From an uncultured Methanosarcinales archaeon (GTDB taxonomy: Archaea; Nanobdellota; Nanobdellia; Woesearchaeales; CAYZNE01), in contig CAYWRI010000004.1 in the NCBI GenBank assembly GCA_964461035.1, positions 342 through 47,943 of the forward strand: a stretch of DNA of 47,602 nt, read 5' to 3'. Below are positions 19,185 to 38,493 of the stretch, piece by piece (within the stretch, counting starts at the first letter, position 1; every line of letters begins with the position of its first letter). The translations under genes and the position numbers were made by a program. Under the pieces are notes generated by a model that did no database searches, had not been told where the DNA came from, and was given only the letters and a program-made list of their open reading frames with translations.

Positions 19185-19422
19185 ATTATCACCATTAATT
19201 CTTAAGTATTTGAGGGAGTAATTTCTTTATTTATAAACTTTTTTATTTCATAATCACTCATTAGTAGTAATTAAGGGGTTAATATTCTAAACTAAATTTT
19301 TGGGAGGATGAGAATATTTTTATATATTAAATTGCTAAACACTTTGCTTGATAATAATGCACGTTTTTCTCTAGTTCAGAAAAGTATTAATAATAATAAA
19401 AAATAATAGAATAAAAAAATAA

Positions 19423-27934: not shown

Positions 27935-28058
27935 AAAATAAGCAGAATATTTATTCTTTATAAATTATATGGATTTAATTTTATTAACTATTTAAAGTTC
28001 TCCTCTTAAAGAACAATCAATAACATTTTTAAATGAATATCTTTTCTCAAGTTTCATT

Positions 28059-28142
28059 GCCTCCGTAGCTTAGTGGTGGAGCGTGCGGCTGTTAAAGCTT
28101 ATTGAAACCGCAAGGTCACCAGTTCAAACCTGGTCGGAGGCG
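28059..28142 (+). tRNA. tRNA-Asn(GTT) with 12-nt intron at position 37/38 (28095-28106)
   Basis: Acceptor GCCTCCG/CGGAGGC, anticodon arm TGCGG-CT-GTT-A[AAGCTTATTGAA]A-CCGCA, T arm ACCAG-TTCAAAC-CTGGT. Confidence 0.92.
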
Positions 28143-28152
28143 TTTTTATCTT

Positions 28153-28949: not shown

Positions 28950-29642
28950 TTATTTTTGAAGTGTTAAAAAAAGATTTTTGTCATCTTTCTGACTTTTTAT
29001 AATTTTAAAATCTACTTTTTCACAAAGAGTCTTTATTTCTTCTTCATCAAATAAATAATAATACCTATCAAAAACTTCTCCACCAGAATTTACAGTGTAA
29101 TGAACTCTTACAATTTTATTTTTTTTATTTGTAAATAAGAACTTTCCTTTTTTTAAGTTTTTTTCTATGAATTCACTTTTAGGAAACCAATTAATTATTA
29201 TTGCTTTAGCATCTTTTTTCATTACTCTTTTAATTTCTTGAAGTGCTTTAAGTTGATCTTTTGATTTAAGATTATGATGAAGTGCAGCATTACACATTAC
29301 AATATCAAAACTTTCATTAGTGTAATCAAGATTTATCATAGAACAAACTTTAGCACCAAACCCTTTTTTCTTTATTATATTAATTTGTCCTTCAGAAAAA
29401 TCACAACCTTTAATATTCTCTTTTGAATAACCAATTTTAAGCGCGGCTTCCATATCTCTTCCTGTTCCGCATCCAACATCCAGTAGAATTAAATCTTCTT
29501 TATTTTTTTGTTCTTTTAGAAAACTCTTAACAATATCCCAACTTATTCTATGTTTAATATCCCAATGTTCAGAAACAGAATTATATGTGTTTCTAGTAAT
29601 TTCTTGATATTTTTGACATTCTTCTTGATTCATTATTGACAT
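28950..29642 (-). CDS. Class I SAM methyltransferase, Trm9/ALKBH8-like
   Basis: YNSVSEHW....W..V..FL, LDVGCGTGR, AALHH, RYYYLF...E pattern resembling tRNA cm5U34 methyltransferases. Confidence 0.75.
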   Translation of the reverse strand: MSIMNQEECQKYQEITRNTYNSVSEHWDIKHRISWDIVKSFLKEQKNKEDLILLDVGCGTGRDMEAALKIGYSKENIKGCDFSEGQINIIKKKGFGAKVCSMINLDYTNESFDIVMCNAALHHNLKSKDQLKALQEIKRVMKKDAKAIIINWFPKSEFIEKNLKKGKFLFTNKKNKIVRVHYTVNSGGEVFDRYYYLFDEEEIKTLCEKVDFKIIKSQKDDKNLFLTLQK

Positions 29643-29843
29643 AATTATTAGATATATTATAAAATTATTGGTGCATATTAGTGAACTGATAGCTTTTTCA
29701 GACTAATCTATTTTAGAATTTTTAATCTTATTTTTTTTCAGAATTTACAAAAAAATTAGCGCGTGAAGAGTTAAAAAATATAAAAAGAATATTTTTAATT
29801 ACTATACAATAAATTTATAAAAAAACCCATCTTCTTTATAGTT

Positions 29844-29942
29844 ATGGCAAAAATAAGTTATTATTTATCAACGGCCTCAGGCTCTAGAAAAGTTTTTAAG
29901 CTACTTCTTCATAATTGTAATAATATTAATAATTTAAATTAA
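29844..29942 (+). CDS. Putative Asn-rich leader peptide (uORF) of asnS, 32 aa
   Basis: MAKISYYLSTASGSRKVFKLLLHNCNNINNLN*; TTTATAAA at 29814, 30 nt before the ATG; oligo-T tracts between stop and asnS. Confidence 0.6.
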   Translation: MAKISYYLSTASGSRKVFKLLLHNCNNINNLN

Positions 29943-30013
29943 ACTTTTTAAACATCGTTTTTTTAATTTTACATAAAATTTATATAAAAATAACATTATT
30001 CAGAGGTAATAAA

Positions 30014-31333
30014 ATGGAAGAAACAAGATTAGATAAAAAATTCATAAGTATTAAAACAGCTTTAGAAAAAAAATCAGGAAAAGTCTCAGTTAGAGGCTGG
30101 TGTTATAGAGAACGAGGATCAAACGCAGTAAGATTTATTATTATGCGAGATTCTACAAATATTATTCAATGTGTTTTTGATAAAGAAAAAGTTTCTGAAG
30201 AAATGTGGGAACAAAGTCAAAAGATAAAAATGGAAGCGTCTTTTCAAGTGACCGGAGAACTTTCAGAAAACTCTAAGGCGCCTACAGGTTATGAAATTCA
30301 TGTTGAAGAACTTGAAATAGTTGGATTATCAGATACATACCCAATATCCAAAGATTTTAGTCCTGAATTCTTACTTGACAACAGACATTTATGGTTAAGA
30401 AGTAGAAAAATGACTTCAATCTTGAAAATAAGAAGTACTGTTTTTGGAGCAATAGATGAATACTTTAAAACTAATGGTTTTTACGAATATCATTCTCCTG
30501 TTTTGCAGAGTGTTCAATGTGAAGGTGGTTCAACACTTTTCAATGTTGACTTCTTTGGTAAAAAAGGTGTTTTTTTAGCTCAAACTTGGCAATTATATGC
30601 AGAACCCGCAATCTTTGCACTTGAAAAAATATATACGATTGCGCCTTCTTTTAGAGCAGAAAAATCAAAAACATCAAGACACTTATGCGAATACTGGCAT
30701 GCTGAAATGGAAATGGCGTGGTCAACTTTTGAAGATATTCAAGATCATGGTGAAAAGTTAATAAAATTTATTGTTGCCACTGTTCTTGAAAAAAACAGTT
30801 CTGAACTCGAACTTCTAAAAAGAGACATAAATAAATTAAAACCTGTTGTTGAAAAACCTTTTGTTAGGATGACTTACAGTGAATCATTGATAATATTAAA
30901 AGAAAAATGTAATATAGAAATTCCTTGGGGTAAAGACTTGAGAACAATCGAAGAAGATAAATTATCATCTTTGTACGATGTTCCTATAATTTGTACAAAT
31001 TATCCCAAAGAAGTAAAAGCATTTTACATGATGCAAGATAATGAAGATCCAAGAACTGTTTTGGGTGTTGATTTTATAGCGCCTGAAGGTTATGGTGAAA
31101 TAATTGGTGGAAGCCAAAGAGAACATGACATAGAAAAAATCAAAAAAAATCTTCTTGATTCAGGAGAAAAGCCTGAAGAATATGAATTTTATATGGACAC
31201 AAGAAAATATGGTTCTGTTCCTCATGGAGGTTTTGGATTAGGTGTTGAAAGAGTAATATCTTGGGTTTGCGGTCTTGACAATATCAAAGATGCAATTCCA
31301 TTCCCAAGAACAATGCTAAGGTGGAAACCTTAG
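30014..31333 (+). CDS. asnS: Asparagine--tRNA ligase
   Basis: OB-fold N-terminus, RHLWLRS, EGGSTLF, FRAEKSKTSRHL.EYW, GYGEIIGGSQRE, PHGGFGLGVER, PFPR. Confidence 0.93.
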   Translation: MEETRLDKKFISIKTALEKKSGKVSVRGWCYRERGSNAVRFIIMRDSTNIIQCVFDKEKVSEEMWEQSQKIKMEASFQVTGELSENSKAPTGYEIHVEELEIVGLSDTYPISKDFSPEFLLDNRHLWLRSRKMTSILKIRSTVFGAIDEYFKTNGFYEYHSPVLQSVQCEGGSTLFNVDFFGKKGVFLAQTWQLYAEPAIFALEKIYTIAPSFRAEKSKTSRHLCEYWHAEMEMAWSTFEDIQDHGEKLIKFIVATVLEKNSSELELLKRDINKLKPVVEKPFVRMTYSESLIILKEKCNIEIPWGKDLRTIEEDKLSSLYDVPIICTNYPKEVKAFYMMQDNEDPRTVLGVDFIAPEGYGEIIGGSQREHDIEKIKKNLLDSGEKPEEYEFYMDTRKYGSVPHGGFGLGVERVISWVCGLDNIKDAIPFPRTMLRWKP

Positions 31334-34747: not shown

Positions 34748-35016
34748 GTAGGCAAGTAGCTAATTTTCGCTCCTAGAGTGAGGAAAGTCTGCCCACTATA
34801 AAAGGTTAGCACAAATGTGTGTTCTGAAAAGAACGGCAACCACTCAGAAACGGTACCTCTTAAGTTAAGAATGATGGATTAAATCCGGACATTTCTTAAG
34901 GATGGTTGAAACGGTGAGCCCTAACTAGTGCAAGTCGTTGTGGCGCTTAGTAGAATATTAGCAAGGTCCATCCAGCATGCTTGGGATCTACAGAAGGCAG
35001 CTTATAACTTGTCTAC
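34748..35016 (+). ncRNA. rnpB: RNase P RNA (compact archaeal type)
   Basis: P1 GTAGGCAAGT/ACTTGTCTAC; GAGGAAAGTCTGCC (CR-I), CAGAAAC, TGAAACGG, AGTAGAAT, ACAGAAGGCAGCTTA (CR-V) with P4 complementarity CTGCC/GGCAG. Confidence 0.93.
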
Positions 35017-37296: not shown

Positions 37297-37418
37297 AACA
37301 CGATAAAAATAGAGATAATATATAAATGTTTCTTTAAATAACTTAGTTCATAATATTAATATTAACTAAATAGCCATTTCTCAAAAAACTTATAAATAAA
37401 AAGTAATTATCTAAAGAT

Positions 37419-37502
37419 ATGAGAATTTCAACAATAAAATTAAATGCTTTAAATATGTGTAATCAAGGTTTACTTAGATTGAATTCTTGTTGTTGTTTCT
37501 AA
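37419..37502 (+). CDS. Putative Cys-rich leader peptide (uORF) of cysteine synthase, 27 aa
   Basis: MRISTIKLNALNMCNQGLLRLNSCCCF*; CTTATAAA at 37389, 30 nt before the ATG; TTTTTCTTTT tract downstream. Confidence 0.7.
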   Translation: MRISTIKLNALNMCNQGLLRLNSCCCF

Positions 37503-37584
37503 TAAATAATCTTAATTATAAAACTTATTAATTAATTTTTCTTTTACAAATATATTATTTAGGAGGTAATTAAAATGATGAAAG

Positions 37585-38493
37585 GTGATTATACCTGTAA
37601 AAAATATACTTGAAACAATAGGAAAAACACCCCTTGTTAAAATAAATAGATTAAATAAAAATAAAAATGTGAACATATTTGCAAAACTTGAGAGTTTTAA
37701 TCCTAGTGGAAGTATAAAAGATAGAATCGCTTTCAGAATGATAGAAGATGCAGAGATATCAGGAGAATTAACTAAAGAAAAAACAATAATTGAAGCAACT
37801 TCAGGAAATAAGGGTATTGGTTTGGCACTAGTAAGTGCAGTTAAAGGATATAACTTAGTGGTTGTTATGTCAGAATCAGTAAGTGTAGAAAGGCAAAAAA
37901 TTCTCAAAGCATATGGTTCAAAAATAATTCTTACTGATCCAATGAAAGGAACAGATGGCGCTATAGAAAAAGTAAGATTGATTCTAAGAGAAAATCCTGA
38001 AAAATACTATAATCCTAATCAATTTTGCAATGAAAATAATGTTCTTTCACATTATAATACTGCTGAAGAAATAATTTATCAGATGCAAGGTAAAATAGAT
38101 GTTTTTATTGCAGCTAAAGGAACTACAGGAACATTGATGGGTATTGGAAAAAAACTAAAAGAATTCAACTCTAAAATAAAAATCATAGGGGTTGAACCAA
38201 ACCTAAAACACAAAATTCAGGGTTTAAAAAATATGAAAGAATCAATAATTCCTAAAATATACAATCCTAATATTCTGGATAAAACCATTTTTATTGAAGA
38301 TGAAAATGCATTTCAAACAACAAGAGATCTTGCAAAACATGAAGGTCTTTTTGTTGGTATGAGTTCTGGGGCTACAATGTATGTCGCTTTAAGAATTGCA
38401 GAAAAAATGCATCAGGGAAATATTGTTGTTATTTTTCCAGATAATGGGGAAAAATATCTTAGTACAAATTTATTTATTACAACAGGGGTTTAA
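37585..38493 (+). CDS. cysM: Cysteine synthase (O-acetylserine sulfhydrylase, CysK/CysM family); start ambiguous
   Basis: IGKTPLV, AKLESFNPSGSIKDR, EATSGN, GTTGT, GMSSGA, PDNGEKYLST; some conserved positions deviate (SGNKG for SGNTG). Confidence 0.9.
   Translation: MIIPVKNILETIGKTPLVKINRLNKNKNVNIFAKLESFNPSGSIKDRIAFRMIEDAEISGELTKEKTIIEATSGNKGIGLALVSAVKGYNLVVVMSESVSVERQKILKAYGSKIILTDPMKGTDGAIEKVRLILRENPEKYYNPNQFCNENNVLSHYNTAEEIIYQMQGKIDVFIAAKGTTGTLMGIGKKLKEFNSKIKIIGVEPNLKHKIQGLKNMKESIIPKIYNPNILDKTIFIEDENAFQTTRDLAKHEGLFVGMSSGATMYVALRIAEKMHQGNIVVIFPDNGEKYLSTNLFITTGV

Follow-up and report, generated by a model that had tools for sequence, protein, structure and literature searches.

The stretch of DNA analysed here, 47,602 nucleotides long and hereafter called the window, belongs to the genome of an uncultured marine DPANN archaeon (G000; 1,263,513 bases in 34 contigs, 28.05% GC, completeness 92.5%) whose relatives are labelled Woesearchaeota/Nanoarchaeota. 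The archaeal RNase P RNA encoded in the window places the host in the domain Archaea. Our subject is a small open reading frame (ORF) that lies on the same strand as asnS, the gene for asparagine–tRNA ligase, shortly upstream of it, and that ends in a run of asparagine codons (Table 1). The 371 nt intergenic region between asnS and a divergent methyltransferase gene is made up of two divergent promoters and this small leader ORF. Long pieces from two sets of DNA contigs match the stretch from the leader ORF to asnS without differences.

A first-pass annotation of the window had described a TATA box followed 30 nt further on by the ATG of a 32-codon ORF, two T tracts and a GAGGT motif ahead of the asnS ATG, and a reading of the sequence returned each of these elements at the same coordinates. 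It had also counted six Asn codons among the terminal nine of the ORF and none among the first 23, which is what we find: the peptide ends N-C-N-N-I-N-N-L-N. The Asn tract resembles a 9 nt unit, AATAATNTN, which is present twice, and no Pfam family match was found for the peptide as a whole. U-rich RNA starts 2 nt past the leader stop codon, and the T5 and T7 tracts that encode it are candidate oligo-U termination or pause signals. The end of the leader ORF and the ATG of asnS are separated by 71 nt. The downstream gene, which the annotation had named asnS, scores 487.9 bits against NCBIfam NF003037 (cut-off 414) and 428 against TIGR00457 (cut-off 343), so the name stands; an identity as the Asp enzyme was rejected, as the models for Asp-tRNA(Asn) ligase score under their cut-offs.

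Table 1. Features of the asnS and cysK loci and the RNase P RNA, in window coordinates (P1 and P2, distal and proximal TATA boxes; SD, Shine–Dalgarno).
Feature	Position	Strand	Remarks
Divergent methyltransferase gene	28950..29642	minus	neighbour upstream of asnS
TATA box TTTATAAA of the leader ORF (P1)	29814-29821	+	first T 30 nt before ATG 29844
Leader ORF, 32 codons + TAA (29940-29942), reads MAKISYYLSTASGSRKVFKLLLHNCNNINNLN	29844..29942	+	putatively leaderless
Asn-codon tract AAT TGT AAT AAT ATT AAT AAT TTA AAT	29913..29939	+	6 Asn in 9 codons
T5 (29945-29949) and T7 (29958-29964) tracts	29945..29964	+	directly 3′ of the leader stop
Proximal TATA-like box TTTATATA (P2)	29979-29986	+	possible asnS promoter, 35 nt before asnS ATG
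SD-like GAGGT of asnS	30003-30007	+	11 nt before ATG 30014, within genome-wide SD peak (-14..-9)
asnS, asparagine–tRNA ligase, 439 aa	30014..31333	+	Pfam tRNA-synt_2 + anticodon OB fold
RNase P RNA, archaeal	34748-35016		Rfam RF00373, 142.8 bits
TATA box TTATAAAT (37390) and 27-codon ORF MRISTIKLNALNMCNQGLLRLNSCCCF	37390..37502	+	TATA 29 nt before ATG 37419; upstream of cysK
Cysteine synthase cysK/M	37585..38493	+	cysKM TIGR01136, 363.9 bits (cut-off 344)

In the host genome, the motif TTTATA[AT] lies 30 nt before the ATG of 77 of the 872 long ORFs and 31 nt before the ATG of a further 30, with about two occurrences at each of the other positions. It follows from this peak that host mRNAs are mostly leaderless, the distance from TATA to ATG being fixed, and the leader ORF, whose TATA box sits at -30, thus has the canonical leaderless geometry of its host. 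The Shine–Dalgarno (SD)-like pentamers of the long ORFs peak at -14 to -9; the SD of asnS lies at a canonical -11, as expected of a downstream cistron.

The composition of the tail is rare in this genome. Taking as crude intergenic DNA everything outside ORFs of at least 100 amino acids (205 kb), six Asn within a window of nine codons is reached by a single one of the 820 intergenic ATG ORFs of 20–80 codons, and this is the leader ORF; the runners-up (11 ORFs) reach four. Over the whole genome and in all six frames there are 39 places with six Asn in nine codons, mostly within long coding ORFs. A survey of the regions upstream of 873 long ORFs gave 105 upstream ORFs with a tail biased towards one residue, nearly all of them rich in Leu, Ile, Lys or Phe and lacking a TATA box. 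The leader ORF is the only one of the 105 that pairs a TATA box at -34 to -27 with enrichment of a polar residue in its tail, the other members with a TATA box in this range having Leu- or Lys-rich tails, plus one ORF of 10 codons with its TATA box at -34. Two of the 105 stood out, the asnS leader and the ORF preceding cysteine synthase; within the host genome, small ORFs of this cognate-codon kind were found before asnS and cysK only.

To place the leader ORF among its relatives, asnS upstream regions were assembled from a search of relatives (24 loci), a metagenome scan (74 loci), four relatives of genome G033, the best 80 regions of a search across the order that matched 215 of 401 genomes, a scan of genome contigs (80 loci) and 25 published loci with an asparaginyl-tRNA synthetase (AsnRS) of the G033 type. 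Near-duplicates were merged by shared 16-mers, and the final set comprised 218 non-redundant loci with at least 200 nt upstream. Apart from the near-duplicates, the counts omit L174 (start codon not found), loci with less than 200 nt upstream (for example L120 and L178) and L290, L297, L300 and L313, which belong to unpublished genomes. We counted sense-strand ATG ORFs of 15–60 codons within 350 nt of asnS, and called them Asn-tailed when at least three of their last six codons were Asn.

Eight of the 287 upstream ORFs at these 218 loci are Asn-tailed. Besides the host leader (ending ...NNINNLN), five belong to family f31, with the endings ...SNNPNSNNINN (L126, genome G223), ...SNNINNNSNNNF (L127, G383), ...HKFNNN (L098, identical in G353), ...DLVNNN (L108, G319) and ...NLTNNNC (L128, G279), one to family f39 (...NLLNNN; L157, G041) and one to family f118 (...STNSNN; L165, G258). 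In f31, a TATA-preceded ORF with an Asn-rich end was found in six of the seven genomes examined. Weaker relatives end in ...AINNR (G033), ...TPNR (G001), ...FPNRY (G297) and ...CNIGNR (metagenome locus L096). The recurrence in relatives on which the first-pass annotation had made its proposal depend is therefore there to be seen: a TATA-preceded short ORF ending in Asn codons is found before asnS in four or more of the order's GTDB families.

The same annotation had cautioned that AAT codons arise easily in AT-rich DNA, and base composition does not account for the observed number. When the first 146 loci were shuffled with their dinucleotide composition kept, the mean number of Asn-tailed loci was 0.66 and the maximum five, and none of the 200 shuffles reached the observed eight; in the same test Lys tails were observed seven times compared with a mean of 1.96, as poly-A would predict. 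Real DNA gave a similar answer, with Asn tails in 1/344 small ORFs from other intergenic DNA of the same loci (Fisher p = 0.013) and in 7/1145 from host intergenic DNA minus the leader ORF (Fisher p = 0.004). Ile is encoded by the other open frame of an AAT repeat, and if AAT repeats were mere DNA motifs Ile tails would be expected as often as Asn tails; only two Ile-tailed upstream ORFs were seen, which disfavours this explanation.

The Asn tail is also linked to a promoter. A TATA-like hexamer is found at -34 to -27 in seven of the eight Asn-tailed ORFs, compared with eight of the 265 other upstream ORFs (p = 2e-9), and the eighth Asn-tailed ORF (L128) has a TATA box at its internal ATG. Conversely, 12 of the 15 TATA-preceded upstream ORFs in the whole set have an Asn within their last four codons. 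Most asnS genes in the set are themselves leaderless, with a TATA box at -28 to -31, and Asn-tailed leaders were found exclusively before SD-led asnS genes (8/51 SD-led loci versus 0/167 others; p = 6e-6). Over 146 loci the TATA boxes of asnS peak at -28 to -31 for the leaderless genes and at -40 to -45 for the SD-led genes. The proximal box P2 of the host, at -35, is off both peaks, and a transcription start 30 nt downstream of it would fall past the SD; P2 homologues lie at about -41/-43 in G001, G002 and G003, congeners of the host. Leader peptides diverge freely, even between members of one genus (compare G223 with G383), whereas promoter and Asn tract keep their place. Runs of at least five T occur in the spacer of 10 of the 12 leader-bearing loci, a count that has no background control and is not used here as evidence for termination.

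Three observations were made in passing on other asnS leaders. G279 (L128) and G319 (L108) fall within one GTDB genus, and homology between their asnS leaders is clear (MARVKTLKLKFGF... and MARTKSVKLKFGF..., respectively). Their AsnRS enzymes are of different types, that of G319 being 70% identical to the host enzyme and that of G279 73% identical to the G033 enzyme (E = 1.8e-163 versus the host enzyme); this could reflect recombination, or a replacement of the gene body that left the leader in place. A different type of upstream ORF, MFAYY...Y..(I/L)N, is conserved in L173, L164 and L273 (G253, G108 and G193; one GTDB family, GC 0.52–0.58) and in L283. In L173 (MFAYY...YSSIN) and its look-alikes L164 and L273 a single Asn directly precedes the stop codon, and the L173 ORF has a TATA box at -30. 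Since the peptide sequence itself is conserved, these ORFs might be leaders of the arrest-peptide type. Finally, an asnA-like gene (of the AsnRS-paralogue type) lies 46–116 nt upstream of asnS in L005, L020, L054, L272 and L294, in an apparent asnA–asnS operon; one of these five operons has a possible Asn-tailed leader (L020, a 20-codon ORF ending ...NVFFNN) and four are without.

The second cognate-codon ORF of the host lies in the window as well, upstream of cysK. It ends Cys-Cys-Cys-Phe, and its stop codon (37500-37502) is followed by a T5 tract and by GGAGG (37562). A cysK of this type is present in 62 of the 401 genomes of the order. At 27 published cysK loci, we called an upstream ATG ORF of 8–35 codons Cys-tailed when at least three of its last five codons were Cys. 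Such a poly-Cys-tailed ORF was found at 19 of the 27 loci, mostly with CCC or CCCC as its last residues, and a TATA box sits at about -30 in 14 of the 19 cases. By comparison, a Cys tail occurs in 7 of the 16054 host ORFs of 7–70 codons. At the level of sequence, this parallel poly-Cys ORF before cysK shows that the cognate-codon leader design is real in this lineage.

The distance from the stop codon of the Cys leader to the following gene ranges from 10 to 351 nt. At six loci (L301, L304, L305, L306, L307 and L318) ARAGORN places a tRNA-Cys(GCA) between the leader ORF and cysK, starting some 20–70 nt past the leader stop, and about 22–34 nt past it in L305–L307; a tRNA-like sequence that ARAGORN does not call, possibly because of an intron, follows the leaders of L309 and L316. 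As the tRNA-like sequence begins 22–34 nt past the stop, several loci have no room for a separate tRNA promoter, and in L305–L307 the pre-tRNA would have the translated ORF as its 5′ leader. A tRNA-Cys adjoining a Cys leader without room for a promoter argues for control of transcription or of RNA fate rather than of a ribosome-binding site (RBS).

The two sets of leaders share a motif beyond the stop codon. TTCT occurs within 9 nt past the stop in 15 of the 19 Cys leaders and five of the 12 Asn leaders, compared with 508 of the 7961 small ORFs of the host (6.4%). The motif takes the form (A)(A)TTCT, for instance in L301, L307, L316, L022, L106, L108 and L128; many Cys leaders continue ...TTCTTTCATTGT, and in L316 the motif and the TAG stop codon together make up the palindrome TAGAATTCTA. 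Termination, processing or the binding of a protein are conceivable roles. At the start of the host cysK, an SD-preceded ATGATG opens a mini-ORF of 12 codons (37575-37613; MMKGDYTCKKYT) that overlaps the GTG of cysK (37585) in another frame; this may represent another small ORF, coupled to the start of cysK, or else cysK may be initiated in a different way. One further poly-Cys mini-ORF, in contig C6, was set aside as noise: it has no TATA box, and its flanks may be the antisense strand of a coding region.

From comparative sequence evidence, namely how the locus is laid out, its leaderless geometry, the return of Asn-tailed leaders at asnS in several families and the parallel Cys system, we lean, modestly, towards a leader ORF that acts as a ribosome-stalling sensor in cis of the supply of Asn-tRNA(Asn) and thereby controls asnS. 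The transcript would start from the TATA box at 29814 and continue into asnS, and the leader ORF would be translated as its first cistron, a leaderless one. The SD of asnS and the T5/T7 tracts hint, indirectly, at such a joint transcript with conditional termination. When charged tRNA(Asn) is plentiful, the ribosome would cross the six terminal Asn codons and be released at the TAA; the U5/U7 RNA would then be bare and most transcripts would end there, by intrinsic oligo-U termination and/or termination by aCPSF1/FttA, asnS being kept at a basal level, possibly from its proximal promoter. When charged tRNA(Asn) is scarce, the ribosome would stall on the Asn codons that close the ORF, cover the stop codon and the first U tract and so shield the nascent RNA from the termination machinery, and RNA polymerase would continue into the SD-led asnS to yield more AsnRS. 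We favour such read-through over an unmasking of the RBS because the cognate codons are terminal, the RNA that follows is U-rich, no structure is found and the tRNA that follows some Cys leaders lacks an RBS; about half of our confidence in the sensor hangs on read-through being its output.

Several elements of this scheme have been discussed in the literature. Archaeal termination is described as needing only oligo-U, with or without aCPSF1/FttA (PMC8716108, PMC11616081), and U tracts and aCPSF1 have been linked to termination efficacy in archaea (PMC8716108). Steric competition between FttA and a coupled ribosome is put forward for archaea as an untested hypothesis (PMC11616081), and shielding by the ribosome is presented as a general principle (PMC13675443). 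More broadly, and with a confidence that falls just short of even, we suggest that in Woesearchaeales-type DPANN archaea leaderless mini-ORFs with homo-codon tails (Asn before asnS; Cys before cysK and tRNA-Cys) may make up a ribosome-based network for sensing amino acids and gate read-through of terminators that are free of hairpins and depend on oligo-U or on a factor.

A number of results weigh against a sensor before asnS. The tail is rare, being present at only 8/218 asnS loci (7/40 of those with an upstream GC content below 0.30), and five of the eight belong to f31, which leaves about four independent lineages. No Asn-tailed ORF was found at the 25 further loci with G033-type AsnRS, from other families, and among 78 loci from the genome-contig scan an Asn tail was found at two only, both repeats of other loci. 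AAT runs can grow by slippage or duplication at 28% GC, and the tail looks like a duplicated 9 nt unit. A TATA-like box lies between leader and asnS both in the host (-35) and, at -40 to -43, in six of the 12 leader-bearing loci, where it would give an asnS leader of about 12 nt beginning at the SD; asnS may thus be transcribed independently of the leader. Either asnS may have its own basal promoter to which read-through adds, or the two units may be independent. The leader RNA folds no better than chance (minimum free energy, -17.7 kcal/mol; z = +0.96; 167 of 200 shuffles are equally or more stable), and no helix or fold shared by the 12 leaders was found by minimum free-energy folding, the only method applicable since an alignment-based test is impossible at this divergence. 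Here the first-pass annotation stood in part: its sensor of Asn-tRNA charging, modelled on the leader peptide of pheST, gains from the recurrence, the composition and the Cys twin, and the alternative hairpins of such systems were not seen.

The closest relatives of the host add to these objections. Four genomes share its GTDB genus. In G001, whose AsnRS is about 62% identical, a 25-codon ORF (MARLTTYMQTARGFKKSLLLLTPNR) lies in homologous DNA at the same offset of -170 before asnS, with a TATA box at -31/-30, and 10 of its first 24 residues are identical to those of the host leader; this nearest true homologue has a single Asn, and the related ORF in G297 ends PNRY. The G001 ORF stops after AAT CGT, at a place where the host has AAT TGT and goes on for another seven codons (N N I N N L N), so that by this comparison the Asn tail of the host is a lineage-specific extension. 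The substitutions between the two are spread evenly over the codon positions (9, 11 and 12 in 24 codons) and carry no signature of coding selection on the leader peptide. G003, whose AsnRS is the closest found (79% identical), and G002 are without the ORF: a divergent gene abuts asnS in both, while the proximal promoter and the SD remain, which makes the leader dispensable. A search with nhmmer, using the core common to the host and G001, found no further copy among 104 asnS loci or in the host genome; a search of genomes with the 32-residue peptide matched only the copy in the window and also missed the G001 homologue, so that it is uninformative on absence. Within the genus, then, the ORF is old yet dispensable and its Asn run is specific to the host, a pattern that alone would favour a neutral reading.

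That neutral reading, the alternative that we take most seriously and nevertheless judge unlikely, holds that there is no sensing at all: the element would be a leaderless ORF, or a promoter followed by a chance ATG, that is conserved in part of the genus and whose stop codon was lost in the host so that the frame ran on through neutral, slippage-prone AAT-rich DNA, and the other Asn tails would be coincidence. It draws on the G001 homologue, which ends two codons after its single Asn, on the missing ORF in G002 and G003, on the low GC content and repeat-like tail, on the concentration of a scarce feature in one family and on seven other Asn-tailed small ORFs in host intergenic DNA, of which the one examined (19308..19406) is flanked by two minus-strand genes and precedes no gene. 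Coincidence, however, sits poorly with the shuffles and the real-DNA controls, with the close link between the tail and a TATA box at -30 and the frequency of Asn at the end of TATA-preceded ORFs, with the exclusive association with SD-led asnS genes and with the preference for the Asn over the Ile frame (eight versus two). It is also hard to reconcile with the Cys counterpart, which is unmistakable: Cys codons are rare, and the tail recurs at 19 of 27 loci.

If a sensor exists, its output might be another one than that proposed above: rather than acting on termination, the stalled ribosome could free the asnS RBS, block 5′–3′ decay or alter RNA processing. Such an output appears to us less likely still than the neutral reading. 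It has in its favour that asnS is SD-led at all eight Asn-tailed loci, that in the host the AAUAAU of the Asn tract is complementary to the AUUAUU immediately 5′ of the asnS SD, and that unmasking of the RBS is the mode of action given for the closest studied analogue (10.1101/834739). Nevertheless, a stable or conserved pairing that sequesters the SD was not seen, the minimum free-energy structures of the 12 leaders contain no duplex hiding the RBS, the distances between Cys leaders and their genes vary widely, and at the six loci with tRNA-Cys the first gene after the leader has no RBS to unmask. The leader ORF might instead be an independent gene for a micro-protein acting in trans, its adjacency to asnS being mere synteny. 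Its own canonical promoter and the T tracts after its stop codon do make it look like a complete transcription unit, and the same scan found a plausible small-protein gene of this geometry, a 51-codon ORF in contig C10 that may be Sec61-beta-like. We nonetheless regard a micro-protein as very improbable: the peptides are not conserved apart from their Asn tail and match no family, nhmmer found no second copy, and in two independent systems, Asn with asnS and Cys with cysK or tRNA-Cys, the type of residue matches the downstream gene.

Leader-peptide attenuation is a textbook bacterial mechanism that needs coupled transcription and translation as well as hairpin terminators; archaea also couple transcription and translation but terminate differently. 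The bacterial attenuators trpL, hisL, pheL and pheST are defined by alternative terminator and antiterminator hairpins. The asnS leader resembles them in being a short upstream ORF on the same strand, with cognate codons near its end, a T/U-rich spacer behind it and a proposed control by ribosome position, and differs from them in that such hairpins were not found and the ORF is putatively leaderless rather than SD-led. In tnaC, free tryptophan is sensed through a conserved arrest peptide, and a ribosome held where the leader ORF ends keeps the termination factor, Rho, from reaching the nascent RNA. In the asnS leader, likewise, the regulatory codons come last in the ORF and adjoin the stop codon and U-rich RNA, yet the peptides are not conserved and it is charged tRNA that would be the signal. 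In Firmicutes, where aminoacyl-tRNA synthetase genes usually sense tRNA by way of T-box riboswitches, synthetase expression is similarly tied to the charging of the cognate tRNA; T-boxes are structured RNAs, unlike the ORF found here, and neither a T-box nor any other leader RNA was found in the window, where an Rfam scan at the gathering thresholds matched RNaseP_arch and two tRNAs only.

The closest parallel is offered by the polycysteine leaderless small ORFs of mycobacteria, in which a stalled ribosome is shown to disrupt an RNA duplex that hides the RBS (Canestrari et al., 10.1101/834739). In both cases a short ORF, leaderless in mycobacteria and putatively so here, forms the 5′-most cistron and carries a run of the codon that is cognate to the downstream pathway, and several loci per genome share the design, which its authors call a ‘ribulon’ (10.1101/834739). 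A design spread over multiple loci is also what we find, with Cys leaders at 19/27 cysK loci and Asn leaders at 8/218 asnS loci plus one asnA–asnS operon (L020). Judged from its sequence, the cysK leader looks like an almost exact archaeal counterpart of the mycobacterial ORFs. The archaeal leaders differ in having a promoter of the TATA/TBP type and in that no duplex hiding the RBS was found; moreover, the residue can be Asn and the target an aminoacyl-tRNA synthetase, and the target of the Cys version can be a tRNA gene.

Full-text searches of one literature library, confined to main texts outside subscription, gave no description of a cognate-codon leader ORF in an archaeon, and the words ‘attenuation’, ‘attenuator’ and ‘leader peptide’ do not occur in a review of archaeal coupling (PMC8116511). 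If our proposal is right, leader-peptide attenuation would be seen here for the first time in Archaea, and the Cys case would in addition provide a pre-tRNA with a translated 5′ leader. It would provide a natural and compact test bed for transcription–translation coupling and termination control in archaea, together with a simple rule by which to search for sensors, namely to look for short ORFs that have a homo-codon tail and a TATA box at -30. The common design in the relatives suggests that archaea sense amino-acid supply by stalling ribosomes as bacteria do. Much of the interest stems from the Cys twin, which is far clearer than the Asn leader. The proposal would also give a rare view of regulation in uncultured DPANN archaea with reduced genomes that apparently depend on imported asparagine. 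Pfam matches to Asn_synthase (PF00733) and AsnA (PF03590) were not found in the host genome, whose incompleteness leaves their absence unproven; in view of this result, the supply of Asn to the host may be external and variable.

As to the tRNAs of the host, ARAGORN reports 26 tRNA genes, tRNA-Asn not among them, in a bacterial mode that probably misses intron-bearing archaeal tRNAs. In the window it calls an 86 nt ‘tRNA-Stop, anticodon tta’ at 28058-28143, a stretch to which the Rfam tRNA model gives 56 bits and which ends 9 nt 5′ of a tRNA-Ile(GAT). This is probably a tRNA with an intron or a long arm whose anticodon has been misread, or, conceivably, a suppressor-like tRNA.

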